From the sequence record MN850609.1: 64,000 bases of DNA, one strand, 5' to 3'. The position numbers were made by a program, and so were the translations under genes. The notes under the pieces were generated by a model, which had not been told where the DNA came from, did not search any database, and saw only the letters and a program-made list of their open reading frames with translations. This document shows, in pieces, positions 2,929 to 45,952 of the stretch. Source of the stretch: Escherichia phage dhaeg. Position 1 is the stretch's first letter; each line of letters opens with the position of its first letter.

Positions 2929-3404
2929 TTATTGATTATATTAAGGGCGATATCGTCGCCCTGTTTCTTCAAGGTAATATTATTGCACACGGGTGCAACT
3001 GTTTTCATACTATGGGTTCAGGTGTGGCTGGTCAATTAGCAAAGGCCTATCCTAAAATATTAGAAATTGATAAGACCACTACTGAATATGGTTCTCGTGA
3101 TAAATTGGGTGATATGTCTATTGTTTTTAAACATAAGCCTAATGGATTTGCAATGTGCTATAATTTATACACCCAATACGAACCAGGCCCTAATCTTGAT
3201 TACGGTGCTTTAGTAAACTGTATGATAGAATTAAATCTACAAGCAAATGACCTTTTGTTTAAACCAAGAATTTATATTCCTCGCATTGGTTGTGGTATTG
3301 CTGGTGGTGATTGGGACAAGGTTTCTAAATTAATCGACATGTTTACTCCTGATATTGATTTAATAGTGGTGGATTATGAAAGCACATTACCCACATCCGT
3401 TTGA
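2925..3404 (+). CDS. macro domain protein (ADP-ribose binding / ADP-ribosylhydrolase fold)
   Basis: 159 aa; Gly-rich macro motif NCFHTMGSGVAGQLAKAYP; ATGA overlap upstream. Confidence 0.6.
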   Translation: MIIDYIKGDIVALFLQGNIIAHGCNCFHTMGSGVAGQLAKAYPKILEIDKTTTEYGSRDKLGDMSIVFKHKPNGFAMCYNLYTQYEPGPNLDYGALVNCMIELNLQANDLLFKPRIYIPRIGCGIAGGDWDKVSKLIDMFTPDIDLIVVDYESTLPTSV

Positions 3405-7446: not shown

Positions 7447-7899
7447 ATGATTATCAATGAAAACTCTTGGCATGTTAAATTACATGACCGCTTTTATGCC
7501 AGTTATTCGCGTCCGCGATCATTATGCGCATACTTCTGGAAAATGGTTTGGGTGTGCTTTATGTGTTCTGTGCTTGCAGGTAGTACTATTTTCGGCTTAA
7601 CTGTTGCAGGTGCCGGTATATTGGAGCAGTTCTTTGTATTGAGTACTCCTGTTGGTTTAAGTTTAGGTTTTATTTTAGGACTGATTATAATAGCCCTTAT
7701 TCTAGCGGTAGCTTTTGGTTTGGTGTATGGTCTAATGAATTTATGGGCCCGGTACGATTTACGTAAAGAAGAAAAAGAATGGGAACGCATTAAAGCTAAA
7801 CGTGAAGGAAAGGAAATTAAAGAAAATGTTTTCATTCAATATATTAAAGCTCGTAAATCTAAGATGTGTCCGGTAATCCATTTTGAGGCTAAGAAATGA
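7447..7899 (+). CDS. integral membrane protein
   Basis: 150 aa, two or three hydrophobic helices, basic C-terminus. Confidence 0.5.
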   Translation: MIINENSWHVKLHDRFYASYSRPRSLCAYFWKMVWVCFMCSVLAGSTIFGLTVAGAGILEQFFVLSTPVGLSLGFILGLIIIALILAVAFGLVYGLMNLWARYDLRKEEKEWERIKAKREGKEIKENVFIQYIKARKSKMCPVIHFEAKK

Positions 7900-8906
7900 G
7901 AACAGTTATGAAAGGCTACTTCGGTAGCCACCTTTATGGAACAAGTACTCCGGAATCTGATGTCGATTTTAAAGAAATCTTTGTTCCACATCCGCGTGAT
8001 ATTCTGTTAGGTACGGCAATGAACCATACCAACCTGAACACGAATAACACTGCTTCCAAAAACACTAAAGATGATGTTGACCATGAGCTTTACAGTCTGA
8101 AATATTTCTTTAAACTAGCTGCTGAAGGCGAAACCGTTGCTCTGGATATGCTCCACACTCCGCCTGAAATGGTGGTTAAATCTGATTTACCTGATGTATG
8201 GAAATTTATCCAAGATAACCGTTCGCGTTTCTATACAACCAACATGAAAGCCTATTTAGGGTACGTCCGTAAGCAAGCTTCTAAATATGGTGTTAAGGGT
8301 TCTCGACTGGCTGCTTTACGTGGTGTACTGGCAATTGTTAACCAGATTCCTGAACAGTGGGTTGATTATCAAGAAGATGGTTCTACTAAGCAACGACGTA
8401 CTAAGGTAGAAGATATTAAGCACCGGCTCCCTGAAAATGAGTTCTGTGAATGGGTATTTCATAACCACGAGAAAACAGGTCCTCAAACGTTCTATACCGT
8501 CCTCGGTCGTAAATACCAAACTACTTTGTCATTAATCGAGCTCAAGCAATCTCTGAATAAACTTGATGCCGAATATGGTGAACGTGCTCGTAAGGCCGAA
8601 GCCAATGAAGGTATTGACTGGAAAGCTCTGAGCCACGCTTATCGTGCTGGATATCAGTTGAAGGAAATCTATCAAACAGGCGATTTGGTTTATCCACTTA
8701 AAAATGCTTCTATTATTAAAGCAATAAAAGCAGGTGATATGCCTTTTAAAGTGGTCCAAGGGCTGCTAGAAAACATTGTTGATGAAGTTGAAGTCCTGGC
8801 TGTACAAGCTCATAAGAACGGTATACCTGAGAAGGTGGACATGAAGTTCTGGGACAAGTTCGTCGAAGAGGTGTATCTTGACAACCACAACTCTTATTAC
8901 CGCTAA
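7896..8906 (+). CDS. nucleotidyltransferase-fold protein (Pol-beta superfamily motif GS...DVD)
   Basis: 336 aa; GSHLYGTSTPESDVDF motif; ATGA overlap upstream. Confidence 0.5.
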   Translation: MRTVMKGYFGSHLYGTSTPESDVDFKEIFVPHPRDILLGTAMNHTNLNTNNTASKNTKDDVDHELYSLKYFFKLAAEGETVALDMLHTPPEMVVKSDLPDVWKFIQDNRSRFYTTNMKAYLGYVRKQASKYGVKGSRLAALRGVLAIVNQIPEQWVDYQEDGSTKQRRTKVEDIKHRLPENEFCEWVFHNHEKTGPQTFYTVLGRKYQTTLSLIELKQSLNKLDAEYGERARKAEANEGIDWKALSHAYRAGYQLKEIYQTGDLVYPLKNASIIKAIKAGDMPFKVVQGLLENIVDEVEVLAVQAHKNGIPEKVDMKFWDKFVEEVYLDNHNSYYR

Positions 8907-9102
8907 AGAAGAAATCAAGGTTTTCCTGTCATATGGAAGACCTCATAAAACCTGTCGTTGGTATCTTGAAGTAGTTTGTAGAGAAACCGGTAGACGAATC
9001 AATTTCAAGTACGTATGCAAGCCTACGTCTAAGCAGATAAGACGGTGTATTAACTGGGCTATCAATAATATCCGCTTCCATAATTATTGGAGCGCAATTT
9101 AG
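8878..9102 (+). CDS. hypothetical basic Cys-containing protein
   Basis: 74-aa ORF overlapping end of upstream gene; stop abuts terminator. Confidence 0.3.
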   Translation: MTTTTLITAKEEIKVFLSYGRPHKTCRWYLEVVCRETGRRINFKYVCKPTSKQIRRCINWAINNIRFHNYWSAI

Positions 9103-9124
9103 GAACCTTCGGGTTCCTTTTTTT
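9102..9124 (+). terminator. rho-independent terminator (GGAACC-TTCG-GGTTCC + T7), copy 1 of repeated cassette
   Basis: perfect hairpin plus T-tract; identical hairpin at about 43401 and 63909. Confidence 0.8.
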
Positions 9125-9143
9125 GGGTTCAGCACAAAAAAGT

Positions 9144-9172
9144 GTTTACAACCTAGTAGAGCATGTTATTAT
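9144..9172 (+). promoter_or_regulatory. early promoter (GTTTAC / TATTAT)
   Basis: AAAAAAGTGTTTAC, 17-bp spacer, TATTAT. Confidence 0.6.
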
Positions 9173-9209
9173 GGACCTATCAAATCTACTGAGTGAAACG
9201 GAGAATATA

Positions 9210-10190
9210 ATGTTAACTATCAAAATCAACAAAGGTATCTATCGAGGTAATGAAATCTCTGGTACGTTCATGAGTTCAGGTAAAACCTGGTTCCCTAATA
9301 AAATTCATGAATCCGAAGCTCACCTCGGTGACGGCAAGGTATTTGTACAGATTGATGGTGTTGAACGTGGTGTGTGGGTGTTCAAATGTGACATCGAAAT
9401 GGAAGGTGCTGAAGCTCCTGCAATGGTCACCGAATCCGCTGAAGAAATGAAACACCGCATCAACAAACGTTTTAAAGTAATGAACATGATGACTAACGGA
9501 ATCATCGATGGTAAAATTCGTTCCCTTATCATCTCTGGTGCCGCAGGTATTGGTAAAACATACTCTTTGGATAAAGCATTACAAAATGCCCATGAAAATG
9601 AAACTATCGAATATAAATCAATCAACGGAAAGATTAGTGGAATCGGTCTTTACGAGCAGCTTTGGAATAACCGCGGCCCTAATAGTGTTCTTCTTATTGA
9701 TGATGTTGATGTATTCTCTGACATGGATATCCTGAACCTTCTGAAAGCCGCATTGGATACTGGTGAAAAACGTAAGGTGTGTTGGAGCACTTCAAGTTCT
9801 TACCTCGACGATAAAAATATCGATAAAGAATTCGAATACGAAGGCACCATCGTGTTCATCACCAACGTTGATATTGACCGTGAATTAGAGCGTGGAACTA
9901 AACTTGCTCCACACCTCCAGGCTTTAGTATCTCGTTCCGTTTATCTCGACTTGGGTGTTCACTCAAACGAAGAGATTATGGTTCGGGTTGAAGACGTTAT
10001 CCTGTCCACTGATATGATGCAAAACCGAGGTCTGACCGATGCCGAGACTTATCAAGCTTTAGCATGGATGAAGGCTAATGTATCTCGTCTTCGTAACGTA
10101 TCATTACGTACAGCTCTTTATCTGGCGGACTTCATTGCCACCGATAAAAATGACTGGAGCGAAATCGCTGAAGTTACACTTCTGAAATAA
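9210..10190 (+). CDS. AAA+/P-loop ATPase
   Basis: Walker A GAAGIGKT, Walker B LLIDDVD; start placed at ATG after promoter (listed ORF start 9087 spans terminator and promoter). Confidence 0.6.
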   Translation: MLTIKINKGIYRGNEISGTFMSSGKTWFPNKIHESEAHLGDGKVFVQIDGVERGVWVFKCDIEMEGAEAPAMVTESAEEMKHRINKRFKVMNMMTNGIIDGKIRSLIISGAAGIGKTYSLDKALQNAHENETIEYKSINGKISGIGLYEQLWNNRGPNSVLLIDDVDVFSDMDILNLLKAALDTGEKRKVCWSTSSSYLDDKNIDKEFEYEGTIVFITNVDIDRELERGTKLAPHLQALVSRSVYLDLGVHSNEEIMVRVEDVILSTDMMQNRGLTDAETYQALAWMKANVSRLRNVSLRTALYLADFIATDKNDWSEIAEVTLLK

Positions 10191-12117: not shown

Positions 12118-12333
12118 ATGGAAATCTTAGGTTTTATTCTCCTTTACTTTGTGCTAGGATTTATGACGACCTTTATCATTCATAAATCAGGTGATTGGAA
12201 TCCGATCGAAATTGAATCAAGCTATGATGCAGTATTCATTACACTAGTATGGCCCCTACTTTGGGTTGTTTTGGTCATTATGATGGTGTTTTGGCCTATC
12301 GCTAAATTCTATGAAAAATTATTTGGACTTTAA
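12118..12333 (+). CDS. small membrane protein
   Basis: 71 aa, two hydrophobic helices. Confidence 0.45.
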   Translation: MEILGFILLYFVLGFMTTFIIHKSGDWNPIEIESSYDAVFITLVWPLLWVVLVIMMVFWPIAKFYEKLFGL

Positions 12334-12334
12334 T

Positions 12335-13204
12335 ATGAACATTAAAACACGTAAAGAATACTCTATATACGACCATGACACAACTCGTCGTATCGCTATT
12401 GACAGGTTAGCCGACTTTGGTCATATTTGTAATGGTAATTATACTTATGGCGTAGGTCGTAAAGGAACTTATATTTCTTCTTTGAACGATTATTGCCGTC
12501 GCCCAGCCCACCTGTTTGGTGCAACATTACGAGCTAATATCAAAGACCTCTTGGCTACTGCAGGACGTATTTCTACGGTTCCTGTTAATATCAAGAATAT
12601 TAATTTTACGGCCCGTAACCTAGTCATTAATATTCTGTCTGACGGTATTCAAGTTCGTTTTCGCCCCACCTCAAAAGGTAATAAGGCCCTTCGTGAAGCA
12701 TTCGAAACCTTATTCAGAGAAGCAATGACTCGTATTAAGGCCGTAGAATCATATAAAGTTACAACCGATGAATATGCTGATTGTTCCGGGCAAGCCGATG
12801 CAGTGTATATCAGAGTTAAACTAACTAGCGAATATCTTTTATCTTATGCCCCTTATCAACCCCAACAAAAGGACCCACAAATGGAACGTCGTATCTCTGC
12901 AGTATCATGTGACAGCGTAGGCCAGTATGCAGCCTATGACAAATTCAAAACCACCGCTGTGCCTAGTCCATTCAATTCCGAACCGTATCATTGGAAAATT
13001 AAACCTGATAATTCTTTGGTTGTTACTAACCCTACGATGAAACCTATTGAGACCTATTATGCAGATAGCATTCAGGAATCAATCCATCGTTTAAATGGTC
13101 AGATTGAAGATGAGAAAAAGAGCATTCAAGACGTTCTTAATCGCATCAAGAATATGGAAAACCAGCGTGACAAGCTTCGCGCGGCACTATTAGCTCTAAA
13201 ATAA
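12335..13204 (+). CDS. hypothetical protein with C-terminal coiled-coil tail
   Basis: ATG immediately after upstream stop. Confidence 0.5.
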   Translation: MNIKTRKEYSIYDHDTTRRIAIDRLADFGHICNGNYTYGVGRKGTYISSLNDYCRRPAHLFGATLRANIKDLLATAGRISTVPVNIKNINFTARNLVINILSDGIQVRFRPTSKGNKALREAFETLFREAMTRIKAVESYKVTTDEYADCSGQADAVYIRVKLTSEYLLSYAPYQPQQKDPQMERRISAVSCDSVGQYAAYDKFKTTAVPSPFNSEPYHWKIKPDNSLVVTNPTMKPIETYYADSIQESIHRLNGQIEDEKKSIQDVLNRIKNMENQRDKLRAALLALK

Positions 13205-19454: not shown

Positions 19455-19714
19455 CGCCTGTATCCATAACATTAGCTTATGAAGGCTTAGGATTTTTCTT
19501 AATAGATAACTATATGAATGTTGAGTTTATTTGCGGAGAGACTTCTGAAGTGTGGAAGTCTCATATTTCCAAATACAACCAATCCGAATATTTAGTCCTT
19601 TACCAACAATTCTGCCTTTATATTCAAAGCCAAGGATTTGAAGGAGCCCCTTCCTTCGAAGAGTTCAAAAAAATTCTTGAAACAGTATTTCAGGCTTATT
19701 GCTTACTCCGTTGA
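19451..19714 (+). CDS. hypothetical protein
   Basis: 87-aa ORF. Confidence 0.4.
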   Translation: MTPVSITLAYEGLGFFLIDNYMNVEFICGETSEVWKSHISKYNQSEYLVLYQQFCLYIQSQGFEGAPSFEEFKKILETVFQAYCLLR

Positions 19715-19741
19715 TGCTTTAAACGGGTCTTCAAATACTAT
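19715..19741 (+). promoter_or_regulatory. candidate middle-type promoter (TGCTTTA box + TACTAT)
   Basis: MotA-box-like TGCTTTA about 14 nt upstream of TACTAT. Confidence 0.35.
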
Positions 19742-19780
19742 GATATAATAGACCTATGATTTGAGTTATCTGAGGTAACA

Positions 19781-20338
19781 ATGACCGAAATTAAACTGAC
19801 TAAAAATAACTATGTAAATAATAAGGAGCTTCTGAAAGCCATTACCCAGTGGAAAACAGAGCTCCGAGAAAATACCGATCCTAATAAAATAGTTCGTCAG
19901 AACGATGTTATCGGCTTGGCTATTATGCTCATTGCTGAAGGCCTTTCTAAGCGTTTCAACTTCTCCGGGTATACCCAATCTTGGAAGCAAGAAATGATTG
20001 CTGATGGAATCGAAGCTTCTATTAAAGGCCTTCACAACTTCGACGAAACAAAATACGACAACCCACATGCATATATCACTATGGCTTGTTTTAATGCCTT
20101 TGTTCAGCGTATCAAGAAAGAACGTAAAGAAATGGCAAAGAAATACAGCTACTTCGTCCATAACGTTTATGACGCTAATGACGACGACATGGTAGGTATC
20201 GCAGATGAAACTTTTATCCAGGATATTTACGACAAAATGACTCAGTATGAAACCTCTTTAGTTAAAGCGCCAGGGTCTGATAAGAGCGCCGAATCTAAAG
20301 TTGGTGAGCTGGATTTTTTATATGGAACTCAAGATTAA
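19781..20338 (+). CDS. 55: late-transcription sigma factor gp55
   Basis: 185 aa; near-identity recalled to T4 gp55 ([34 protein letters not shown]). Confidence 0.85.
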
Positions 20339-20549
20339 CCTGGTAGGCCTTTTAGAAGAAGTAGATGGAGAGTATTCGGCAATTCCTTATGTTCTTAAAA
20401 TGTATCTTAAGGATATTGCCAAGCTTCCTATTGTAATAGACCCAAAACACCCTGATTCGGTAGAAATTAAAGCTGAAAAAGGAACATTAACTTATAACTA
20501 TCACGTTACCGACGAAGATTTTTATATAAAACTGAATTACAAGGATTAA
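20322..20549 (+). CDS. hypothetical protein
   Basis: internal ATG of ORF 20301-20549, overlaps gp55 end. Confidence 0.4.
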
Positions 20550-20550
20550 T

Positions 20551-20862
20551 ATGCAAAGCACCGACATTTCTCAATTGACCGAAGAGCAAATTGAAGAAGC
20601 CCAGAAGCGTTTAGAAGAGAATAATGCTAAAGAAGCCGCTTCTCAAGCTGCCAAAATTCTTAAAAAGAATGCCCGTGAAATTAAGCGTCTTAATACACAT
20701 GCTCAGGGCGCTGTTCTCGAAAACAATTTCGAAGCTTACAAATATGCTATAATTAAATTACGTGGTATTTACCGTCAACCAACTACTGACGAAATCGTTA
20801 GAGTTATGTGGGAAACTACGCGTAAACAGATTTGGGAAATTATCAATGGCGCTAGTAAATAA
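20551..20862 (+). CDS. hypothetical protein
   Basis: 103-aa ORF. Confidence 0.45.
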   Translation: MQSTDISQLTEEQIEEAQKRLEENNAKEAASQAAKILKKNAREIKRLNTHAQGAVLENNFEAYKYAIIKLRGIYRQPTTDEIVRVMWETTRKQIWEIINGASK

Positions 20863-21049
20863 ACCCTTTAAACGGCTTCTTATTGGAGCCGCCTTCAGAC
20901 TTCGCTCATACGGTAATATTTGTATTAAGCAGACTGAAACCGAATATAAAATGGTTGGGCAATATTCCGATGAAATTTTTCGGATTGAGCCTGTAGCCAA
21001 GGTTTGGGTGGATTCTCATCAACTTAAGAAATGGTGGAAACGATGGTAG
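20846..21049 (+). CDS. hypothetical basic protein
   Basis: internal ATG of ORF 20762-21049. Confidence 0.35.
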   Translation: MALVNKPFKRLLIGAAFRLRSYGNICIKQTETEYKMVGQYSDEIFRIEPVAKVWVDSHQLKKWWKRW

Positions 21050-21151
21050 GATTTTATGAAAGCGGATGTAACGAAGACGAACATCCGGATTTTTAAGCTT
21101 ATGAATGACGAATACGAAAAAGTTTAAGAGGTCGTATGAATGACGAATTCG

Positions 21152-21313
21152 ATGGATTTTGATAAGATTAAATCTGACAAAAATGAGATGATACTTAAAT
21201 TTGAAGCTGCTCGTATTAAAGCGGAAAATGAAGGTACTATTACTTATAAGAAAATCAAGTTCAGGTCTTCTCATGAACCTCTGTATGGCGTATTAATTGG
21301 TAAAGGAGCTTAG
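21152..21313 (+). CDS. hypothetical small protein (unlisted ORF), preceded by two tandem 8-codon mini-ORFs
   Basis: 53 codons read by hand; stop lies in terminator stem. Confidence 0.3.
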   Translation: MDFDKIKSDKNEMILKFEAARIKAENEGTITYKKIKFRSSHEPLYGVLIGKGA

Positions 21314-21324
21314 GCTCCTTTTTT
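21303..21324 (+). terminator. rho-independent terminator
   Basis: GGAGC-TTAG-GCTCC plus T6. Confidence 0.7.
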
Positions 21325-21337
21325 GCTTTCTGAATGG
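21314..21337 (+). promoter_or_regulatory. candidate middle-type promoter for gene 47 (TGCTTTC box + TAAAAT)
   Basis: MotA-box-like motif 11 nt upstream of TAAAAT. Confidence 0.3.
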
Positions 21338-21370
21338 ATGATAAAATAGATTTAATTAAGCGAGGATATT

Positions 21371-22393
21371 ATGAAAATATTAAACACAGGTGACTGGCAC
21401 CTTGGAGTTAAGAACGACGACCCTTGGGTCCAAAACATTCAATTGACCGGCATTAAAGATGCTATCAATTATTCTAAAGCAAATGGTATTACTGTATGGA
21501 TTCAATACGGTGATATTTTTGATGTCCGTAAAGCCATTACTCATAAGTGTATGGAATTTGCTAGACATATTTCAGATTTGCTTAAAGAAAACGGCATTAC
21601 CATGTATACCGTTGTTGGTAACCATGATGCCCACTACAAAAATACCTTGACTCCTAATGCTGCTTCTGAAGTTCTCGGTAAATATGACCATATCAAGGTT
21701 ATTGAAAAACCTACTACGGTTAACTTTGATGGCACCGAAATTGATTTGATTCCATGGATGTGTGAAGAAAACACGACTGATATCATGGACCATATCAAAA
21801 ATACCACAGCAGATTTCTGTGTTGGTCATTGGGAATTAAATGGTTTCTATTTCTATAAAGGAATGAAATCCCATGGTTTAGAACCTGATTTCCTTAAAAA
21901 GTATAAGCAAGTTTGGTCTGGTCACTTCCACACTATTTCTGATGCAGCAAATGTTAAGTACATTGGTACTCCATGGACCCTGACTGCAGGTGATGAGAAC
22001 GACCCTCGTGGTTTCTGGATTTTCGATACCGAAACCCATAAAATGGATTTCATCATTAATGAAACCTGTTGGCATCGTAAGATTCATTATCCTAATGCGA
22101 CTATCGATTACAAAGATTTTACCAACATAGCAGTTCGTGTTATAGTCGATAAAATTGATGATGGCCTTACTAAGTTCGAATCAGAGCTTGAAAAGGTTGT
22201 TCACTCTTTACGTATTGTGTCTAAGGTAGATAATAGTGTTGATATCGATGATTCTGAAGAGGAAGATGAAGTTAAATCTCTCTTGGATATGATGTATGAT
22301 TATATCGACGCCCTTCCTGATGGCCACACTGAAGCCGATGTTAAAGCCCTTAAGACTATGGCTGCACAACTTTATAATGAGGTTACACGATGA
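21371..22393 (+). CDS. 47: recombination endonuclease subunit gp47 (Mre11-like)
   Basis: 340 aa; phosphoesterase motifs GDWHLG, GNHD, GHWE; strong similarity recalled to T4 gp47. Confidence 0.85.
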   Translation: MKILNTGDWHLGVKNDDPWVQNIQLTGIKDAINYSKANGITVWIQYGDIFDVRKAITHKCMEFARHISDLLKENGITMYTVVGNHDAHYKNTLTPNAASEVLGKYDHIKVIEKPTTVNFDGTEIDLIPWMCEENTTDIMDHIKNTTADFCVGHWELNGFYFYKGMKSHGLEPDFLKKYKQVWSGHFHTISDAANVKYIGTPWTLTAGDENDPRGFWIFDTETHKMDFIINETCWHRKIHYPNATIDYKDFTNIAVRVIVDKIDDGLTKFESELEKVVHSLRIVSKVDNSVDIDDSEEEDEVKSLLDMMYDYIDALPDGHTEADVKALKTMAAQLYNEVTR

Positions 22394-22653
22394 CTTTAGA
22401 TGAATTCAAAAAATCGGGACTTGAACTGGAACACGACTGTATAGTTATTGATGATGATGGTCAACCTAGTACAATTAAGTTCTGGTTTGAAGCCGTGAGC
22501 ACTCGTGATACCGGCGAGCTTATTAAAGTTTATGTTGCTACCGATTGGGCTGTAGAATTTAGTTTTAATGTAATGGAAGATGATACTCCAGAGGCATTAA
22601 TTCATATGGCTGAATCATGCATCAAGGATGCTTATAACGATGAAGACTTTTAA
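22390..22653 (+). CDS. hypothetical acidic protein
   Basis: 87-aa ORF between 47 and 46. Confidence 0.4.
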   Translation: MTLDEFKKSGLELEHDCIVIDDDGQPSTIKFWFEAVSTRDTGELIKVYVATDWAVEFSFNVMEDDTPEALIHMAESCIKDAYNDEDF

Positions 22654-24512: not shown

Positions 24513-24536
24513 TGCTTTAAAATATTGATTTATAAT
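24513..24536 (+). promoter_or_regulatory. candidate middle-type promoter (TTGCTTTA box, 11 bp, TATAAT)
   Basis: MotA-box consensus-like motif with canonical spacing. Confidence 0.4.
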
Positions 24537-27884: not shown

Positions 27885-27905
27885 AGGGACTTCGGTCCCT
27901 TTTTT
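27885..27905 (+). terminator. rho-independent terminator
   Basis: AGGGAC-TTCG-GTCCCT plus T5; overlaps -35 region of polymerase promoter. Confidence 0.7.
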
Positions 27906-27963
27906 GGAGTATAATGATTCATCAACAAACAAAAGACAATCACTCGTCTATAAAGGAAATGAA

Positions 27964-30675
27964 ATGCAAGAATTCTATTTGACAGTCGAACAAATCGGTG
28001 ATAATATTCTCGAACGTTACATCGATAAAAATGGTAACGAACGTAGTCGTGAAGTTCCTTACAAGCCTACAATGTTTATGCATGCTAACCCAGAGCAAGC
28101 CGTAAAATATATTGACATCTACGGTAAGGGCTGTGTTAAGAAAGAATTCGATTCAATGCGCGATGCTTCTCAGTGGATGAAGCGCATGGACGATATGGGT
28201 CTCGAAGCCCTTGGTATGGATGACTATAAATTAGCCTATTTGTCTGATACCTATCGTAAAGAAATCAAGTATGATTCTTCTAAGATTCGTATTGCTAACT
28301 TCGACATCGAGGTAACATCTCCTGATGGATTCCCTGAACCTGCCCAGGCTAAACATCCTATCGATGCCATTACTCACTACGACTCGATTGATGATAAATT
28401 CTATGTATTCGACCTTTTAGTTTCACCTTATGGTACGGTCGAAGAGTGGTCGATTAAAATCGCTGAGAAACTCCAAGACGAAGGTGGTGACGAAGTTCCA
28501 CAGGAAATCATTGACAAAATCGTTTATCTTCCGTTTAATTCTGAAGAAGAAATGATGCTTGAGTATCTTAATTTCTGGCAACAAAAAACTCCTGTGATTT
28601 TGACTGGATGGAACGTTGAATCATTTGACGTGCCATACGTTTATAACCGTCTGAAAAATCTGTTTGGTGAGAACACTGCTAAGCGATTAAGCCCGCATCG
28701 TAAGACTCGTGTTAAAGTTATCGAGAACATGTACGGCGCTCGCGAAATTATTACACTGTTCGGTATCTCTGTTCTGGATTATATCGACCTTTATAAAAAA
28801 TTCAGCTTTACTAACCAGCCTTCTTATTCTCTGGATTACGTTTCTGAATATGAATTGAAAGTAGGTAAGTTGAAATATGATGGTCCTATCTCCAAGTTAC
28901 GTGAGACGAACCACCAACGATATATTTCCTATAACATTATCGACGTATATCGTGTTGTGCAGATTGATATGAAACGCCAGTTCATTCTTCTTAGTCTGGA
29001 CATGGGTTACTATGCCAAGATGCAGATTCAGTCGGTGTTCAGTCCAATTAAGACTTGGGACGCTATTATCTTTAATAGCCTTAAAGAACAGGGTAAAGTT
29101 ATTCCTCAGGCCAAATCGCATGCGGTTCAACCTTATCCAGGCGCTTTCGTTAAGGAACCTATTCCTAACGCGTACAAATATGTAATGAGTTTCGACCTTA
29201 CATCTCTGTACCCGAGTATCATTCGACAAGTGAATATAAGCCCAGAGACCATCGCAGGGACATTCGCAAACGCGCCGATACATGAATATATTGCCGGAAC
29301 TGCTCCGCGTCCTAGCGACACCTACAGTTGCTCTCCTAACGGCATGATGTACTATAAAGACCGTGATGGTGTGATTCCTACAGAAATCACGAAGGTGTTC
29401 TTACAACGTAAAGAACATAAAGGTTATATGCTTGCAGCTCAACGTAATGGTGAGTTAATTAAAGAAGCATTAGAAAATCCTAATCTGTCTGTTGATAGTC
29501 CATTGGATGTTGATTATCGTTTCGACTTCTCTGACGAAGTCAAAGCCCAGATTAAAAAATTGTCAGCCTCTTCTTTAAAAGAAATGTTGTTCAAAGCCGA
29601 ACGTACTGAAGTCGCAGGTATGACTGCTCAGATTAACCGTAAATTGCTTATCAACTCCCTTTATGGTGCACTTGGTAACGTATGGTTCCGTTACTATGAC
29701 CTCAGGAACGCAACTGCAATAACATTGTTTGGTCAAATGGCCCTCCAATGGATTGAACGTAAGGTTAACGAATATCTGAATGGTGTGTGCAAGACTGAAA
29801 ACCAGAAGTTCGTGCTCTATGGTGATACCGACTCCATTTATGTTAAGGCCGATGCAATCATCAATAAAGTAGGCGAAGACAAATTCCGTGATACCAACCA
29901 CTGGGTCGACTTCTTAGATAAATTTGCACGTGAACGTATGGAACCAGCTATTGATGCAGGCTTCCGTGAGATGTGTGAATACATGAACAATAAACAGCAC
30001 TTGATGTTCATGGACCGAGAAGCTATCGCTGGTCCTCCACTTGGTTCTAAAGGTCTTGGTGGATTCTGGACAGGCAAGAAACGTTATGCACTGAACGTTT
30101 GGGACATGGAAGGTACTCGCTATGCCGAACCACACTTGAAAATCATGGGTCTCGAAACCCAGAAATCAAGTACACCTAAAGCGGTTCAGAAAGCTCTGAA
30201 AGAATGTATCCGACGTATGCTTCAAGAAGGCGAGGCCTCTTTGCAAGAATATTTCAAACAGTTTAATAAGGAATTTAACGAACTAGACTATGTAAGCATT
30301 GCTGCAGTATCCAGTGCTAACAACATCGAGAAATATAATGAAGGCGGTTTCCCTGGTTCTAAATGTCCGTACCACATCAAAGGTTGCTTAGCTTACATGC
30401 GTGCTTCTGCCGGTGATTTGACTATGCCTCGTATCGTTGATGGTGAAAAGGTATATGTACTGCCACTTAAAGAAGGCAACCCGTTCGGTGAAGCTTGTAT
30501 GGCATGGCCGTCAGGTATTGAACTTCCGATTCAGATTCGTGACCAAGTCCTCCGTTGGATGGACTACAATGTACTGTTCCAAAAGACCTTTATCAAACCT
30601 CTGACCGGTTTTACTGAGTCTGCTAAAATCGACTACGAGAAAAAAGCAACATTATTTGACATGTTTGACTTTTAA
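27964..30675 (+). CDS. 43: DNA polymerase gp43 (family B, 3'-5' exonuclease proofreading)
   Basis: 903 aa from MQEFYLTVEQIG; Exo motifs, KxxxNSxYG, YGDTDS; listed ORF start 27904 spans the TATAAT. Confidence 0.95.
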   Translation: MQEFYLTVEQIGDNILERYIDKNGNERSREVPYKPTMFMHANPEQAVKYIDIYGKGCVKKEFDSMRDASQWMKRMDDMGLEALGMDDYKLAYLSDTYRKEIKYDSSKIRIANFDIEVTSPDGFPEPAQAKHPIDAITHYDSIDDKFYVFDLLVSPYGTVEEWSIKIAEKLQDEGGDEVPQEIIDKIVYLPFNSEEEMMLEYLNFWQQKTPVILTGWNVESFDVPYVYNRLKNLFGENTAKRLSPHRKTRVKVIENMYGAREIITLFGISVLDYIDLYKKFSFTNQPSYSLDYVSEYELKVGKLKYDGPISKLRETNHQRYISYNIIDVYRVVQIDMKRQFILLSLDMGYYAKMQIQSVFSPIKTWDAIIFNSLKEQGKVIPQAKSHAVQPYPGAFVKEPIPNAYKYVMSFDLTSLYPSIIRQVNISPETIAGTFANAPIHEYIAGTAPRPSDTYSCSPNGMMYYKDRDGVIPTEITKVFLQRKEHKGYMLAAQRNGELIKEALENPNLSVDSPLDVDYRFDFSDEVKAQIKKLSASSLKEMLFKAERTEVAGMTAQINRKLLINSLYGALGNVWFRYYDLRNATAITLFGQMALQWIERKVNEYLNGVCKTENQKFVLYGDTDSIYVKADAIINKVGEDKFRDTNHWVDFLDKFARERMEPAIDAGFREMCEYMNNKQHLMFMDREAIAGPPLGSKGLGGFWTGKKRYALNVWDMEGTRYAEPHLKIMGLETQKSSTPKAVQKALKECIRRMLQEGEASLQEYFKQFNKEFNELDYVSIAAVSSANNIEKYNEGGFPGSKCPYHIKGCLAYMRASAGDLTMPRIVDGEKVYVLPLKEGNPFGEACMAWPSGIELPIQIRDQVLRWMDYNVLFQKTFIKPLTGFTESAKIDYEKKATLFDMFDF

Positions 30676-31115: not shown

Positions 31116-31616
31116 ATGAAAAAGTTAATTATCGCAATGAGTATGCTCCTATCAGGTTGCGCGGTCCAATACGGCGATGCAGTTTCGGCTGATGAAGTTG
31201 GTAAAGCTCGTATTGCAGCTGAACAGAAACAATTCGACGGCGAAATGAAATTCCGTGCTGGTTCTGGACTTGTGTATACCCGAGCTAATAATCAATGTGG
31301 TAATAACTGTGCAAAATATGCTCAAAGGGAAATCGAATTCCAACGTGAACAAGAGTCTAAGCGTGAAGCGGTACTAGCCAAACACCAGGCAGAAATGAAG
31401 CGCCAAGATGATTTGTACAAAAAGCAGAAACTGTACGCGATGTGTGTAAACCATATCAATCTACAGATTTCCGTCCACGAGGCCCGTTATTACGAAATGC
31501 TCGAAACCGAGAGCTTCGATAAGGCGCGCGATTATAAGAAACAAATCAACAAGCTTAAGACCAAAGTGCCTGCTGCAGTAGAACAGTGCATGGAATACGG
31601 TAAAGATAAGATTTAA
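31116..31616 (+). CDS. lipoprotein
   Basis: 166 aa; signal peptide with lipobox LLSGC. Confidence 0.5.
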   Translation: MKKLIIAMSMLLSGCAVQYGDAVSADEVGKARIAAEQKQFDGEMKFRAGSGLVYTRANNQCGNNCAKYAQREIEFQREQESKREAVLAKHQAEMKRQDDLYKKQKLYAMCVNHINLQISVHEARYYEMLETESFDKARDYKKQINKLKTKVPAAVEQCMEYGKDKI

Positions 31617-31676
31617 GCAATAGAAATTTATTAAAAATAGTGTATAATGTATCTACATTCACTTGAGGAACAGATA

Positions 31677-33350
31677 ATGAAAAAGGTTGTTATTTTAGGC
31701 GCAGGTCTTGGCTCACGGTTGTATCCAATTACTAACGAAATCCCGAAGGTATTGGTTAACTACAAACAACATACTGTATTAAAACATTTGTATGATTTGT
31801 ATAGTAACCAATCAGATGAAATTATTCTGGTTATCCACAGCAAATTTAACGACCTCGTTAAAGGCTATATTAAATCCATTAACATGATTACTGGCGATAA
31901 GCCTAAATTCACTATTCGTAACGTTGATGTTGCTAATGGTTCGGCCCATGCTATCGATTGCATTGCCGAAGATATCATTGGCCATAATGTCTTGTTTAAC
32001 TGGTGTGACATCATTCCTATCGGTCATAAAGTTGAATGGGGTAACGACTACTGTTATACCTATGGAACCGACTGTCGTTTTACATTCGAAGAACCATATT
32101 TACGTGAAATTGGTACTGGTGGTGGCGTAGTTGGTTTGTATCAGGTGGCTAACTGGACAGGTTTCGACCGTTCTAATTATGGTGAAGACCTTGCTGATAA
32201 CCTGGATTCAATGGTCTATTTGACCGAACGTAAACTAGACTTTGTAGTTGATGTCGGTGACAAATTGAAACTGGCTAAGGCCCATGAAGAATCTGAAATC
32301 AATCGTGAATTTAATAAATTAGAATTCACTGAGAATCTGGCCATTAAAGTACCAACTAACGAATTAGGTAAAGAAATTCAATCTAAAGAAATCAATTGGT
32401 ATAATTCTATTGATTCTGAATTTGTTCCTAGTATTGTGGACTTTTCTCCAGGCGAATTCATTAAAATGGAACGTATCTTTGGTCGTACCATGGCAGATGC
32501 CTACCGCTTTATGTCCAAAGAAACTAAAGTCCTCATGGTTTATAAGGTCATTAGTGCATTACGTTCATTTGGTGGAACTATCGATAATCCGTCCGATGAA
32601 CAATGGTATTCTGATGTTAAGAAAGAAGTATTGGACAAGGTCCTTATTCGTAATGCTTCTATTGCTGGATTGATTGAAGGCTTTGCTCCACAAGGCATTA
32701 CCCACGTTAACGATTTCAAAGTAGGCGACCCTGAAAAACTTCTCCGCCATGCACTAGAAATTCTGTCTGAACATAAAGAACCATACCAACTTATTCATGG
32801 CGACCCGCACTACAGTAATATTATGCTGTCGGACGAAGGTGATATTAAAATCATCGACCCACGCGGTTATTTCGGTAATAGTTCTAAAGGCCCTGCGATT
32901 TATGATGAAGCTAAGGTGCTTTATTCTATCGATGGCTATGATAAATTTAACTCAGACCCTCTATGGGGTGGATTAACTCGTAACGGAACTCGTGTATTCG
33001 TTGATATCGAAAAGGTTATGCCTTTAGACGATATCCCTATGTGCACATTTAAGCACAAGCTCTGGATTGCCGTTATTTGGATGGCTCTGGCAGGTTACTT
33101 TAAGAATAACCCTCTGAAAGCTCTGGGTGCTTATTATAATGGTTTGTATCAACTGAGTGTGCTGCTGAAGCGGCATCCTCGTAAGCGTAAGCTTATTACG
33201 GGTGAATTTGTCGATGAAGTTCGTGACCCTATTACGGCTCAAATTATTACTCGTTGTCCTGATAAGTGGGTTTTGCTTGACCAGGAAACTGGTGTAAAAT
33301 ATAAACCTACAGGTTCTACTGAACTCCACAAACAATGGAAGAAAATTTAA
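31677..33350 (+). CDS. bifunctional LicC-like nucleotidyltransferase / APH(LicA)-like kinase fusion
   Basis: N-terminal ILGAGLGSRLYPITNEIPKVLV (sugar- or alcohol-phosphate NTP-transferase G-loop); C-terminal HGDPHYSNIML...IKIIDPRG (kinase catalytic loop); GAGGAA RBS; extended -10 TGTATAAT upstream. Confidence 0.65.
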   Translation: MKKVVILGAGLGSRLYPITNEIPKVLVNYKQHTVLKHLYDLYSNQSDEIILVIHSKFNDLVKGYIKSINMITGDKPKFTIRNVDVANGSAHAIDCIAEDIIGHNVLFNWCDIIPIGHKVEWGNDYCYTYGTDCRFTFEEPYLREIGTGGGVVGLYQVANWTGFDRSNYGEDLADNLDSMVYLTERKLDFVVDVGDKLKLAKAHEESEINREFNKLEFTENLAIKVPTNELGKEIQSKEINWYNSIDSEFVPSIVDFSPGEFIKMERIFGRTMADAYRFMSKETKVLMVYKVISALRSFGGTIDNPSDEQWYSDVKKEVLDKVLIRNASIAGLIEGFAPQGITHVNDFKVGDPEKLLRHALEILSEHKEPYQLIHGDPHYSNIMLSDEGDIKIIDPRGYFGNSSKGPAIYDEAKVLYSIDGYDKFNSDPLWGGLTRNGTRVFVDIEKVMPLDDIPMCTFKHKLWIAVIWMALAGYFKNNPLKALGAYYNGLYQLSVLLKRHPRKRKLITGEFVDEVRDPITAQIITRCPDKWVLLDQETGVKYKPTGSTELHKQWKKI

Positions 33351-33733
33351 TGTCGCATCGAGTAGAAAATAAGCCACATTTATGTTTTGATATCGATAAC
33401 ACAATCACGATTTGGAACCATGACCGTGATTATGAGAACTTTAAACCGGACACCGAAATGGTGTCCATGATTAATAAGCTTTATGATGAAGGGTACGAGA
33501 TTACATTGTTCACTGCCCGTGGCATGACTTCATGTGGCCCAGGTCGAATCTTGGTTGAAGTAGTTCCTGCATTGGTTAAGAATCTTGAAAAAATTGGATT
33601 GAAATATCACAATTTGCTTACACACAAGCCGAGTTATACTTTTATCATCGATGACCGAGCAATCCGTCCTGACCACTTTAAAGAATTGGTTCGTGAAGGA
33701 ACTCTTGATAGTTATAAGGCCTATCATCCATGA
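33335..33733 (+). CDS. small cap-less HAD-superfamily phosphatase
   Basis: motif I CFDIDNTIT, motif II ITLFTAR, motif III/IV K...IIDDR; start may be 33335 or 33350. Confidence 0.6.
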   Translation: MEENLMSHRVENKPHLCFDIDNTITIWNHDRDYENFKPDTEMVSMINKLYDEGYEITLFTARGMTSCGPGRILVEVVPALVKNLEKIGLKYHNLLTHKPSYTFIIDDRAIRPDHFKELVREGTLDSYKAYHP

Positions 33734-34266
33734 ATCCAAAAATCATTGTTATAGACGGCCCGGATAATTCCGGGAAGTCCACTTTAATTAAAAATCTGTT
33801 ATCCAATAAGAAATACCGCCTTATTGATTTTCCTAAAAAGATTAATGGCAAGTGTATTTCATTAGGAACTGATAACGATAAGGCTTTAGTTGAAACTCTG
33901 TATAAGTTTTTAGACCCTAATTTCGTTTATATCCTTGACCGTGGTTATCCAAGTAATATTGTTTACTCAGGATTCCTTCGTGGTGAAATGGACCCTTATG
34001 TAGAACTGGAAGATTGGAAAGGGTTTAAATCTGAATTTAACGTTATCGAGGTTATTTTAACTCGCAACCCATTAGACGAAGACTTCGAAGATGACCTTAT
34101 TAAATTAACCAAAGATGAGTTCAACCTAACTATCCAGCAATACGAAACATGTTTTGAAAACGTGTTTAAAATCTTAAATCATGACGGTCATAATAATTTG
34201 CTTAATGTTGATATGGTAGAATTAAAACGTCTGAACGAATATATTGAAAATAAGGTGAATAAATGA
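33730..34266 (+). CDS. thymidylate-kinase-like P-loop (d)NMP kinase
   Basis: IVIDGPDNSGKST P-loop and LDRGYPSNIVYSG (TMPK DRY-like motif); ATGA overlap. Confidence 0.55.
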   Translation: MNPKIIVIDGPDNSGKSTLIKNLLSNKKYRLIDFPKKINGKCISLGTDNDKALVETLYKFLDPNFVYILDRGYPSNIVYSGFLRGEMDPYVELEDWKGFKSEFNVIEVILTRNPLDEDFEDDLIKLTKDEFNLTIQQYETCFENVFKILNHDGHNNLLNVDMVELKRLNEYIENKVNK

Positions 34267-34961
34267 AACACATTACCGCTGTTAGTTTTGAAAACGCATT
34301 TAAACAAATGAACGAAGAAATCCTGGAAGCTCCACAGTTTGCAGTTGATTCTCGTATCGGACGCTGTTATGAAATTGGTTCTGCTTCAGTAGAAGTACTG
34401 GATGCCAGCACCTATAAATTCACCGACCCACGTATCAATCGTATCAGTTATGAATATGCCGAATCCTTTTGGAAATTTATGATTTCTGGTGGTACTGACG
34501 CTGCCGAAGCATTTAAGGAATACCCTAATGTTGCTAAGTTCATTGATAAGCCGAAAAGTGACGTATTGCCTGCAAACTTCAACACTTTCTATGGACCTCG
34601 AATTGTGGCCCAGCTCCCAGCCCTACTTAAAGAGCTTAAAGAAAAGGCTAACTCGCGAAGAGTTGTGTTCCAGATTCTCCAAGAACAAGACCAAGCCCTC
34701 CTTGATTCTGACGAATCCTTAGAATACCCGTGCACCGATTCAGTAACGTATTATATTCGTGATGGTCGTTTGTATGCACATACCCATATGCGTTCACAAA
34801 ACTGCGCTGTTGTTATGCAGCTGGATTTCTATCTGCAGGGTAAACTGATGGCATTTATTGCCGAACAGTGTGGTGTCGGTTTAGGTACGTATTCCCACAC
34901 CATGGTAAGTGCACACGTGTTTGAACGTGATTTTGACTACGTCCGAGGTTTCCTGAAATGA
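34263..34961 (+). CDS. 42: dCMP hydroxymethylase (thymidylate-synthase fold; gene 42 homolog)
   Basis: 232 aa; TS/dCMP-HMase family motifs (HMRSQN-like); synteny with imm and uvsX. Confidence 0.75.
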   Translation: MKHITAVSFENAFKQMNEEILEAPQFAVDSRIGRCYEIGSASVEVLDASTYKFTDPRINRISYEYAESFWKFMISGGTDAAEAFKEYPNVAKFIDKPKSDVLPANFNTFYGPRIVAQLPALLKELKEKANSRRVVFQILQEQDQALLDSDESLEYPCTDSVTYYIRDGRLYAHTHMRSQNCAVVMQLDFYLQGKLMAFIAEQCGVGLGTYSHTMVSAHVFERDFDYVRGFLK

Positions 34962-35851
34962 GTTTGTTTATCGTTCCTATTTTCAGTATGCGTAGTTACG
35001 AAACAGGTGAATATGCCGTCCTTAAGGACGGTAATTTTCAACTCCATTTAAATCGTGCTCGTCCAGGTGATTATCTGGCTTATCCTAGAAATTCGAGCGA
35101 TATCAAAGAATGCATTGAATTATTCCCAGAACTGAATTTCGTACCACTTTGGTATAAAGAAAATGCTTATGAAACCCGTAAACATTTCTGGTCCGAAAAT
35201 GAGTTTGTAGTCGATTCACTAATCGAATACTATGATTGCTCAGGACTGGTAACCGATATCACCGGTTATGATGGTGCTCATACTGTACAATTCAACTTTA
35301 ATATCACAATGGACCCTGAAGTTCCTCGTTATTATATCGACGAGTTCATTGATATTGATGTGGCTTCAGTTGAACGTTCACTTTATACTACAGTCCTGAA
35401 TCAATGCCAGAAAGACGTCCTGGTGTCACGAGGTGCATCCTCTGATAAGATTTTTGTAGACCAAAAGGTAATTAATCCTGCAGTAATTGAGCGTTACTCT
35501 GATGGTCTAGCGCCTATTAAAATTGATGGTATTTTCCATCCATTCCGTATTTCGGATAAGTGCTATCAATTCGAAAGAGTTGTAGACCAAGCTGCCGCTG
35601 AAGGTGCTCGTCTTTATATCACCGACCCGAATGATTCATTTAAGCGTGAAGACTATCGTCCTGATGTAGAGATTGTTAAATTCAAACCGAGTAAGGTTGA
35701 ATATTATCAGATTCTGAAATCAAGACCACATATCATTTATCATGAGAACCCAGGTTTAGTATTCCATCCTGGTCTGGCTGAATTCATTTATTTCGGTGCC
35801 CATATTCATTCTGAGTACGAAATGCCACGTTATGAGGACGTAGTATGCTAG
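34958..35851 (+). CDS. hypothetical protein at the beta-glucosyltransferase position; putative DNA base glycosyltransferase
   Basis: 297 aa; occupies beta-gt locus between 42 and uvsX; coupled to 42 by ATGA; no clear similarity to T4 beta-gt recalled. Confidence 0.35.
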   Translation: MSLFIVPIFSMRSYETGEYAVLKDGNFQLHLNRARPGDYLAYPRNSSDIKECIELFPELNFVPLWYKENAYETRKHFWSENEFVVDSLIEYYDCSGLVTDITGYDGAHTVQFNFNITMDPEVPRYYIDEFIDIDVASVERSLYTTVLNQCQKDVLVSRGASSDKIFVDQKVINPAVIERYSDGLAPIKIDGIFHPFRISDKCYQFERVVDQAAAEGARLYITDPNDSFKREDYRPDVEIVKFKPSKVEYYQILKSRPHIIYHENPGLVFHPGLAEFIYFGAHIHSEYEMPRYEDVVC

Positions 35852-35976
35852 GTCCTCTATTGCTTTTTATAGGTTTGTTATTATTCTCTTTCGGAGCCCT
35901 TCTAGTATTATGCTGGCTCGAGAAACGAGAAGTTCGGAAGATAGTCGATAAGGCTATCAACCGAGGAATTAAGTAA
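35845..35976 (+). CDS. small membrane peptide (unlisted ORF)
   Basis: 43 codons read by hand; hydrophobic N-terminus. Confidence 0.3.
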   Translation: MLGPLLLFIGLLLFSFGALLVLCWLEKREVRKIVDKAINRGIK

Positions 35977-45927: not shown

Positions 45928-45952
45928 CTTTCTATCAACTGAGGAGAATAAT

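Follow-up and report, generated by a model that had tools for sequence, protein, structure and literature searches.

The genes 55 and 47 of T4 flank an interval that contains the alpha-glucosyltransferase gene a-gt. A preliminary description of Escherichia phage dhaeg (sequence record MN850609.1) held that a-gt has been replaced in this phage, at positions 20322–21370, by small ORFs, and that the phage does not glucosylate hydroxymethylcytosine (hmC) in the manner of T4. The locus poses two questions, namely what the small ORFs are and how a phage of this type modifies its DNA. We addressed both in a 64-kb stretch of the genome (the window), in which the parts of the 55–47 interval and of the modification gene cluster described below lie on the + strand. 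Judged by its sequence, the window comes from a Dhakavirus, a JS98-like relative of T4, and it is 99.3% identical to Dhakavirus dhabil across 25 kb.

The interval is bordered on the left by gene 55 (19781–20338), whose 185-aa product is gp55, the sigma factor of late transcription (phrog_234, E 2.7e-68; 79% identity to T4 gp55), and on the right by gene 47 (21371–22393), which encodes an SbcD/Mre11-like nuclease subunit (340 aa; phrog_100, E 1.5e-135; 74% identity to T4 gp47). The longest ORF between them on the coding strand has 103 codons, and the interval contains four small genes and two mini-ORFs, together with a hairpin that is followed by a run of T. As an inventory, the preliminary description was accurate: position 20322 is the first small-gene ATG, gene 47 starts at 21371, and the small ORFs and tandem mini-ORFs that it listed are all present, as is a terminator-like hairpin in the place of its terminator. 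An Rfam search of the interval returned nothing meaningful and no structured RNA, and the late promoter motif TATAAATA was not found in the interval or nearby.

Homology scores identify the four small genes as orthologues of T4 a-gt.5, a-gt.4, a-gt.3, and a-gt.2. When the T4 proteins were used as tblastn queries, matches were obtained with E values of 5e-14 to 2e-21, and three of the four ORFs pass the gathering cut-off of a Pfam family. The a-gt.5 orthologue (20322–20549; 75 aa) reaches 68 bits for DUF5491 (20325–20549; E 9e-19), where the cut-off is 27, matches phrog_1169 (E 5e-29), and is 51% identical to T4 a-gt.5 (tblastn E 2e-17). Its ATG lies exactly at 20322 and produces a 17-nt overlap with the end of gene 55, as in T4. 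The a-gt.4 orthologue (20551–20862; 103 aa) is predicted to be all-helical and scores 86.9 bits for DUF2654, whose cut-off is 25 (E 1e-24). The a-gt.3 orthologue (20846–21049; 67 aa), which shares its first 17 nt with the end of a-gt.4, has no Pfam family above the gathering cut-off, and is recognized by phrog_1648 (E 2.7e-28), by tblastn with RB69 a-gt.3 (E 7e-15 at 20846–21043), and by its 44% identity to T4 a-gt.3. Finally, the a-gt.2 orthologue (21140–21313; 57 aa) scores 75.1 bits for DUF5486 (cut-off 27; E 4e-21), matches phrog_2140 (E 6.6e-32), and is 56% identical to full-length RB69 a-gt.2 (E 3e-15). These assignments are already present in GenBank, where the annotation of JS98 names the ORF equivalent to 20322–20549 a-gt.5, and those of JS98, JS10, and IME08 name all four ORFs a-gt.5, a-gt.4, a-gt.3, and a-gt.2. 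A full-text literature search on the function of a-gt.2 to a-gt.5 turned up one passing mention. We take the four products to be early/middle accessory proteins without enzymatic activity, made from a transcript shared with gene 55 and playing no part in glycosylation.

If novel small ORFs had been inserted in the place of a-gt and had displaced it, the interval would look much as it does, with small ORFs alone and a-gt missing. However, T4 itself keeps all four orthologues, in the same order, beside a-gt, and the four ORFs are also carried by RB69 and by Klebsiella phage Mineola. The site occupied in T4 by mobB, a-gt, and 47.1 corresponds in dhaeg to the spacer between a-gt.2 and gene 47, which is 57 bp long (21314–21370) and contains just a conserved hairpin and promoter-like module. 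The T4 annotation and the homology scores together refute a replacement, to which we assign almost no probability, and the word "replaced" in the preliminary description has to be given up. The interval is instead a compact form of a conserved T4-type early/middle block, consisting of gene 55, a-gt.5 to a-gt.2, the hairpin and middle-promoter-like module, and gene 47. The T4 cassette of mobB (a homing endonuclease gene), a-gt, and 47.1 is simply absent from dhaeg, its slot left unfilled.

Comparison with named phages places the differences precisely. Within Dhakavirus, JS98, JS10, IME08, dhabil, and CLB_P2 have the same genes in the same order between 55 and 47 at 91–97% nucleotide identity, and the a-gt.4 protein of CLB_P2 is identical to that of dhaeg. 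JS98 has an additional gene, 47.1, preceding gene 47, which dhaeg lacks. The interval of RB69 (Mosigvirus) is identical in architecture and is also devoid of a-gt, with the small proteins sharing 30–59% identity with those of dhaeg. T4 (Tequatrovirus) matches dhaeg in the order 55, a-gt.5, a-gt.4, a-gt.3, a-gt.2, and differs in the ∼2.2 kb of mobB, a-gt, and 47.1 that it carries between the module and gene 47. In Mineola (Jiaodavirus), a-gt.5 to a-gt.2 follow gene 55 and gene 47 lies further on, as in dhaeg, but a-gt.2 is immediately followed by an a-gt gene, whose product is 67% identical to T4 a-gt, and this in turn by 47, neither mobB nor 47.1 being present. Thus, the small-gene block after gene 55 is kept with or without a-gt, and where a-gt exists it is found between a-gt.2 and 47. 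When T4, RB69, Mineola, and dhaeg, which represent four genera, are compared in pairs, the identities of both gp55 and gp47 form a nearly star-like pattern. For gp55, RB69 is nearest to T4, whereas Mineola, which is farther off, has a-gt in the slot used by T4. This distribution hints that the a-gt cassette was lost or exchanged in arabinosylating lineages.

The absence of a-gt from the interval, as the preliminary description had it, extends beyond the interval. With T4 a-gt as a tblastn query, the best match in either the window or the full sequence of dhabil has an E value of 0.098 over 36 aa, which does not indicate a homologue, and no homologue of T4 b-gt is present in the 64-kb window or the complete dhabil genome. 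Petrov et al. 2010 (PMC2993671) had already reported that JS98 and RB69 are without glucosyltransferase genes, and this absence in JS98-type phages has been known since that publication. Because the window covers 64 kb of roughly 166–171 kb, an a-gt or b-gt gene could lie elsewhere in the dhaeg genome, and the dhabil genome was used to stand in for the phage beyond the window. That this close relative has neither gene, and that JS98 and JS10 are reported without them (PMC2993671), makes such a location extremely improbable. Homologues of a-gt occur in 657 phage records, and a sample of 40 spread over these points the same way, in that it contained no JS98-like phage. Sampled matches from Escherichia and Shigella phages have at least 90% identity to T4 a-gt and those from Klebsiella phages ∼66%, and the identity bands and organism counts in this sample agree with a split between these two host groups.

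How, then, might the DNA be protected? Between gene 43 and uvsX, 10–15 kb downstream of the interval and within the same window, dhaeg carries homologues of RB69 gp45, gp46:47, gp48, gp51, and gp52:53 at 38–80% identity. The gene at the position of gene 42 (34263–34961) encodes a 232-aa thymidylate-synthase homologue (Pfam Thymidylat_synt, E 3.6e-13) that shares 80% of its residues with RB69 gp48 (E 9e-129), versus ∼25% with T4 gp42 (E 1e-7). Among PDB entries, it matches 9iqu/9iqc with an E value of 2e-125, and the T4 dCMP hydroxymethylase 1b49 with 1.5e-4. RB69 gp48 makes 5-hydroxy-dCMP (5hodCMP) with oxygen from O2, and 5hodCMP synthase activity, a flavin- and O2-dependent hydroxylation of dCMP, has been demonstrated for both RB69 gp48 and DLP3 gp80 (PMC13326640). 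The 232-aa protein is predicted to belong to this 5-hydroxy-dCMP synthase type, represented by RB69 gp48, DLP3 gp80, and HY126.

A simpler reading would be that this protein is a true dCMP hydroxymethylase and that the DNA contains plain, unglycosylated hmC. Petrov et al. 2010 left that option open, giving JS98 a gene 42 allele and no gt genes (PMC2993671). The dhaeg enzyme also has an Asp where T4 gp42 has Asp (position matched by eye), at a site that sets dCMP specificity (PMC13326640). Nonetheless, the identity values place the enzyme with the 5hodCMP-making gp48 and far from gp42, and its gene is adjoined by genes for a sugar-nucleotide pathway and a high-confidence GT-B transferase. We therefore consider plain hmC very unlikely. 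Since the gene-42-position homologue is so much closer to gp48 than to gp42, the base itself is probably not hmC. The earlier statement that hmC is not glucosylated in the T4 manner thus stands insofar as a-gt and b-gt are absent from the window and from dhabil, and falls short in presupposing hmC.

The transferase gene (34958–35851) occupies the position of b-gt, its start overlapping the synthase stop (34961) by 4 nt. The 297-aa product has a GT-B fold, assigned with high confidence, that resembles UDP-sugar-dependent GT4-type enzymes. The preliminary description had taken the gene at this position for a divergent b-gt, but hhalign gives probabilities of 0.1–0.2% against T4 b-gt and a-gt, so that any relation is undetectable. 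The protein is 65–70% identical to RB69 gp47 and gp46, and this similarity makes it a member of the RB69 gp46:47 / DLP3 gp79 family of putative first DNA arabinosyltransferases. That RB69 gp46:47 acts as an arabinosyltransferase is still put forward as a hypothesis in PMC13326640. The family is represented in 352 phage records, and in most of 30 records sampled from these the match extends into a neighbouring gene that carries a thymidylate synthase or dCMP hydroxymethylase annotation.

Upstream of the synthase gene are three further members of the cluster. The first (31647–33350) encodes a 567-aa bifunctional sugar kinase/nucleotidyltransferase of the RB69 gp52:53 / HY126 AfhE type, with an NTP_transferase domain (Pfam; residues 13–110) and an APH kinase domain (356–427) in one polypeptide and 41–44% identity to full-length RB69 gp53 and gp52. 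Its predicted role is in UDP-arabinose synthesis. The second (33335–33733) encodes a 132-aa HAD-type sugar phosphatase of the RB69 gp51 / AfhF type (62% identity to RB69 gp51, E 1e-54; phrog_1238), and the third (33730–34266) a 178-aa P-loop nucleotide kinase of the RB69 gp45 type (38% identity, E 1e-30; phrog_761). The roles given to the AfhE-type enzyme and the AfhF-type phosphatase are those described in PMC13326640.

These enzymes suggest a route in three steps. The thymidylate-synthase homologue would yield 5-hydroxy-dCMP rather than hydroxymethyl-dCMP, the kinase/nucleotidyltransferase and the HAD phosphatase would supply UDP-arabinose, and the single GT-B transferase, whose gene holds the former place of b-gt, would add arabinose to 5-hydroxycytosine in DNA. 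The modification in dhaeg is most likely arabinosyl-5-hydroxycytosine and not hmC, in distinction to the glucosylated hmC of T4. We consider it highly probable that dhaeg combines a compact, conserved 55–47 block lacking the a-gt cassette with DNA protection by this arabinosyl-5-hydroxycytosine route. The route itself was worked out in 2025–2026, and Dhakaviruses were named at that time as carriers of the cluster. As regards annotation, the Dhakavirus "gene 42" homologue would be better named 5-hydroxy-dCMP synthase, and its neighbour in the place of b-gt would be better described as a putative DNA arabinosyltransferase.

The dhaeg cluster is smaller than that of RB69. No homologue was found of RB69 gp55 (arabinose-5-phosphate isomerase), gp50, or gp3 (second transferase), the last being absent from both the window and dhabil. 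A second DNA glycosyltransferase was likewise not detected: the family profile yields one gene per genome, and Pfam scans of nine further ORFs, a set that included several large ones with no assignment, revealed no glycosyltransferase domain. The site of RB69 gp55 is occupied in dhaeg by a 166-aa ORF (31116–31616) with just 11 close homologues. We considered this ORF as the missing isomerase and rejected it, as it encodes a lipoprotein signal peptide and lipobox and matches no enzyme family. E. coli produces its own arabinose-5-phosphate by means of KdsD and GutQ. Because there is one transferase and no phage isomerase, dhaeg may add one arabinose per base, drawn from host arabinose-5-phosphate.

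Alternatively, 5-hydroxycytosine could carry a sugar or chain unlike that of RB69, built from another pentose or fed by a different supply route. The sugar could differ from arabinose because the AfhE-like enzyme is just 41–44% identical to its RB69 counterpart, and the missing gp55, gp50, and gp3 homologues are compatible with such a difference. Our search of the literature found no chemical analysis of DNA from any Dhakavirus that would bear on the choice. Conversely, the transferase and the phosphatase are much closer to the RB69 proteins, the host can supply arabinose-5-phosphate, and Dhakaviruses are listed among the phages with a syntenic cluster that is treated as an arabinosylation cluster (PMC13326640). 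Overall, we judge a sugar or chain unlike RB69's to be unlikely, though less so than plain hmC. With arabinosyl-5-hydroxycytosine as the preferred reading, the narrower proposal that Dhakaviruses use a minimal pathway with one sugar per base and dependence on host KdsD/GutQ, or alternatively a different pentose, strikes us as evenly balanced. A single-arabinose modification, if true, would set these phages apart from RB69, whose DNA bears one and two arabinoses, and from DLP3, with up to three. It would also imply that glycosylase, type IV restriction, and other defences act on the DNA to a different degree. Such DNA may explain differences in defence sensitivity among Dhakavirus, Mosigvirus, and Tequatrovirus therapy phages.

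Two features of the 55–47 interval remain to be described. The terminator scan located a terminator-like hairpin, AAAGGAGC-TTAG-GCTCCTTT followed by a T-run (21302–21324), that overlaps the a-gt.2 stop codon. Its folding energy is −12.1 kcal/mol, modestly better than that of shuffled sequences (z −1.9). A hairpin is found at the same place after a-gt.2 in JS98, dhabil, T4, and RB69; its sequence varies by phage and its pairing is maintained, the stems being GGAGC-TTCG-GCTCC in T4 and GGAACTC-TTCG-GAGTTCC in RB69. A pattern scan then places a MotA-box-like TGCTTTC, 12 nt, and a −10-like TAAAAT at 21324–21347. This element is a candidate middle promoter for gene 47; MotA-dependent middle promoters combine a TGCTTtA box near −30 with a −10 element that follows 11–13 nt downstream. 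Across the window, TGCTTY-N12-14-TANNNT is present 19 times, ∼3-fold above the expected 5.8 ± 2.9, and none of 100 shuffles reaches 19. The module of hairpin and TGCTTT...TAAAAT is conserved after a-gt.2 in the same four phages (TGCTTTA...TAAAAT in T4), and T4 has a second hairpin/promoter-like module after a-gt.

The second feature is the spacer at 21056–21162, which contains a 35-bp direct repeat (21100–21117 and 21135–21152; repeat family D2, 94% identity, 35-nt spacing). The spacer also holds a 23-codon ORF (21056–21127), whose product has no PHROG match, and the adjacent segment 21049–21075 is unlike both JS98 and dhabil. The two mini-ORFs, of 8 codons each, are MNDEYEKV* (21101–21127) and MNDEFDGF* (21136–21162). 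JS98 has both copies of the repeat, as does dhaeg, whereas dhabil has a single copy. We infer that the mini-ORFs and the 23-codon ORF are by-products of the repeat, reflecting a slippage indel, and are not genes.

Nucleotides 19700–22500 of the window are 91–97% identical to JS98-like coliphages of the genus Dhakavirus, and the 25-kb stretch 20000–44999 shares 99.3% identity with phage dhabil, 98.7% with CLB_P2 and 96.6% with JS98. The genes run in the order 55, 47, 46, 45, 44, 62, regA, 43, uvsX and 41; the GenBank records show the opposite (reverse-complement) strand. Gene 55 (19781–20338; phrog_234, E = 2.7e-68), whose product is 79% identical to T4 gp55, and gene 47 (21371–22393; phrog_100, E = 1.5e-135) flank an interval whose coding strand carries four genes of 75, 103, 67 and 57 codons, the first with its ATG at 20322, and no ORF the size of the T4 alpha-glucosyltransferase gene (a-gt). 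Annotations of JS98, JS10 and IME08 name the four a-gt.5, a-gt.4, a-gt.3 and a-gt.2. The a-gt.5 product (20322–20549) matches Pfam DUF5491 with 68 bits (cut-off 27), that of a-gt.4 (20551–20862) matches DUF2654 with 86.9 bits (cut-off 25), that of a-gt.3 (20846–21049) belongs to phrog_1648 (E = 2.7e-28), and that of a-gt.2 (21140–21313) matches DUF5486 with 75.1 bits (cut-off 27).

The preliminary description had placed the interval accurately, with its small ORFs, two mini-ORFs and terminator, but had taken the small ORFs to replace a-gt. The observation is real and the description wrong, as an orthologous block is also present in T4, RB69 and Klebsiella phage Mineola. The order in T4 is 55, a-gt.5, a-gt.4, a-gt.3, a-gt.2, mobB, a-gt, 47.1, 47; RB69 has 55, a-gt.5, a-gt.4, a-gt.3, a-gt.2, 47, exactly the order in the window; and in Mineola gene 55 is followed by a-gt.5-like to a-gt.2-like genes, a-gt, a terminator and 47. 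The four small genes therefore constitute a block that is conserved with or without a-gt. Where a-gt occurs, its slot lies between a-gt.2 and 47, which in the window is a 57-bp spacer. JS98 has an extra 47.1 gene ahead of gene 47 that is absent from the window phage and dhabil.

Literature searches returned nothing on the function of a-gt.2 to a-gt.5. A confident model of the a-gt.4 product is a four-helix protein, with generic structural neighbours only. The four small proteins constantly accompany gene 55 even though the phages concerned modify their DNA differently, which argues that, their names notwithstanding, they are unrelated to glycosylation. The a-gt.5 protein is nearer to that of T4 (51% identity) than to that of RB69 (30%), while a-gt.4 (43% and 48%, respectively), a-gt.3 (44% and 47%) and a-gt.2 (59% and 59%) are approximately equidistant from both, which suggests gene-by-gene mosaicism inside the block. 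Nucleotides 21049–21075, after the a-gt.3 stop codon, are unlike both dhabil and JS98 despite the near-identity to dhabil over 25 kb; this segment and 21348–21370 are local mosaics.

Downstream of a-gt.3, a 90-nt spacer contains two 8-codon ORFs, each beginning MNDE. Both derive from a direct repeat, TATGAATGACGAAT(A/T)CGA, whose copies at 21100–21117 and 21135–21152 are 35 nt apart, such that the mini-ORFs lie upstream of and overlap the start of a-gt.2. The true a-gt.2 start (21140) is inside the second copy in another frame, and a 23-codon ORF spanning the first copy matches no family. JS98 has two copies and dhabil one. The repeat is most likely a small duplication/deletion polymorphism without coding meaning.

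A hairpin followed by a T-run (21302–21321; folding energy −12.1 kcal/mol, z = −1.9) overlaps the a-gt.2 stop codon. From the a-gt.2 stop to the gene 47 ATG, the sequence runs AAAGGAGC-TTAG-GCTCCTTT, TTTGCTTTC, 12 nt, TAAAAT and 23 nt. We read this arrangement as a putative terminator plus a candidate middle promoter that would serve gene 47. Across the window there are 19 instances of TGCTTY-N12-14-TANNNT, a pattern similar to MotA-dependent middle promoters (for example at 21324–21347, 24513–24536, 35861–35884 and 52943–52967), versus 5.8 ± 2.9 in shuffled sequences (approximately 3-fold); 14 of the 19 are on the gene strand. The late promoter consensus TATAAATA, found only twice in the 64 kb, is absent from the interval, as is any Rfam family. 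The same layout exists 3′ of a-gt.2 in RB69 (GGAACTC-TTCG-GAGTTCC, TTTTTTGCTTTA, GATGATAAAAT) and in T4 (GGAGC-TTCG-GCTCC, TATATTGCTTTA, GGTAAAAT), where mobB and a-gt come next; the stem varies in sequence among phages, with pairing preserved. In T4 another hairpin, GGGC-TTCG-GCCC, accompanied by TAGCTTTA and GATATAAT, lies between a-gt and 47.1. The T4 cassette is thus flanked by two module copies, as one would expect had its insertion or excision taken place at that regulatory junction. In T4 NC_000866 35500–41500, these copies of the hairpin with TGCTTTA/TAGCTTTA and a −10 element, one 3′ of a-gt.2 and one 3′ of a-gt, bracket mobB and a-gt at locus positions ~3180–3235 and ~1085–1130.

Identity to T4 gp55 is 90% for RB69, which has no a-gt, versus 78.5% for Mineola, which carries a-gt in T4's slot. 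Between T4 and Mineola, a-gt (67%) and gp47 (73%) are similarly conserved, and gp47 distances are nearly equal among T4, RB69, Mineola and the window phage. These comparisons hint, without constituting proof, that the a-gt cassette was lost or exchanged in arabinosylating lineages, the alternative being a gain in T-even phages.

The absence of T4-type glucosylation, proposed earlier, is correct. The best tblastn match of T4 a-gt in the window has E = 0.098 over 36 residues, and the genome-wide search that had been proposed, run on the window and on the complete dhabil genome (165,644 bp) with T4 a-gt and b-gt (beta-glucosyltransferase), yields no homologue of either. Homologues of T4 a-gt number 657 phage records. 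Among 40 spread across the ranking, matches from Escherichia and Shigella phages share 90% identity or more with T4 a-gt and those from Klebsiella phages ~66%, a split with which identity bands and organism counts agree; none of the 40 is a JS98-like phage. The finding is not new: RB69 and JS98 have long been known to carry gene 42 and gene 56 homologues and to lack glucosyltransferase genes, raising the question of another modification (Petrov et al. 2010, PMC2993671).

Five relevant genes lie between gene 43 (27904–30675) and uvsX (36055–37227). They encode a 567-aa protein with NTP_transferase and APH kinase domains (31647–33350; 41–44% identical to RB69 gp53/gp52), a 132-aa HAD-type phosphatase (33335–33733; gp51, 62%), a 178-aa P-loop kinase (33730–34266; gp45, 38%), a 232-aa thymidylate-synthase homologue (34263–34961; gp48, 80%) and a 297-aa GT-B fold protein (34958–35851; gp47 and gp46, 65–70%). 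Together they form a cluster (31647–35851) with homology to the RB69 arabinosyl-5-hydroxycytosine pathway. The 2007 JS98 annotation already labels these genes 'RB69 orf045c/047c/048c/051c/052c-like'. RB69 gp48 converts dCMP to 5-hydroxy-dCMP using O2, gp51 and gp52:53 correspond to HY126 AfhF and AfhE in UDP-arabinose synthesis, RB69 DNA bears mono- and poly-arabinosylated 5-hydroxycytosine, and the genera with syntenic clusters include Dhakaviruses (Lee et al. 2026, PMC13326640). The assumption that the phage makes hydroxymethylcytosine is probably mistaken, since the 232-aa protein is only ~25% identical to T4 gp42 and matches PDB 9iqu/9iqc with E = 2e-125 versus 1.5e-4 for T4 dCMP hydroxymethylase (1b49). 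Likewise, the gene described as a divergent b-gt is probably not one: the 297-aa protein matches no Pfam family and, in profile comparisons, resembles neither b-gt nor a-gt of T4. Its family comprises 352 phage records, and in most of 30 sampled the match extends into an adjacent thymidylate-synthase-type gene.

RB69 pathway proteins gp55 (arabinose-5-phosphate isomerase), gp50 and gp3 (a second transferase) have no homologue in the window or dhabil, and the transferase family is represented by a single gene per genome. Phage Thanatos, with a single transferase, is mono-arabinosylated (PMC13326640). By this analogy, and from the missing homologues, we predict one arabinose per base in the window phage. 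Arabinose-5-phosphate would be supplied by the E. coli host, which possesses KdsD and GutQ.

The ORF at the position of the RB69 isomerase gene (31116–31616; 166 aa, JS98 orf43, phrog_1754, no Pfam match) was rejected as an enzyme; it encodes a predicted lipoprotein adjoining imm, with a lipoprotein signal peptide (MKKLIIAMSMLLSGC), an invariant CGNNC motif and only 11 close homologues, and may function in the envelope or in superinfection exclusion. Among larger ORFs without assignment, those at 7896–8906, 9087–10190 and 12311–13204 encode an RlaP-like nucleotidyltransferase domain protein, an AAA/STAND-like NTPase and a DUF7235 protein. Outside the region corresponding to the window, dhabil encodes a 501-aa protein (45768–47273 of its locus) that combines collagen repeats with a carbohydrate-binding module of type CBM5/12.
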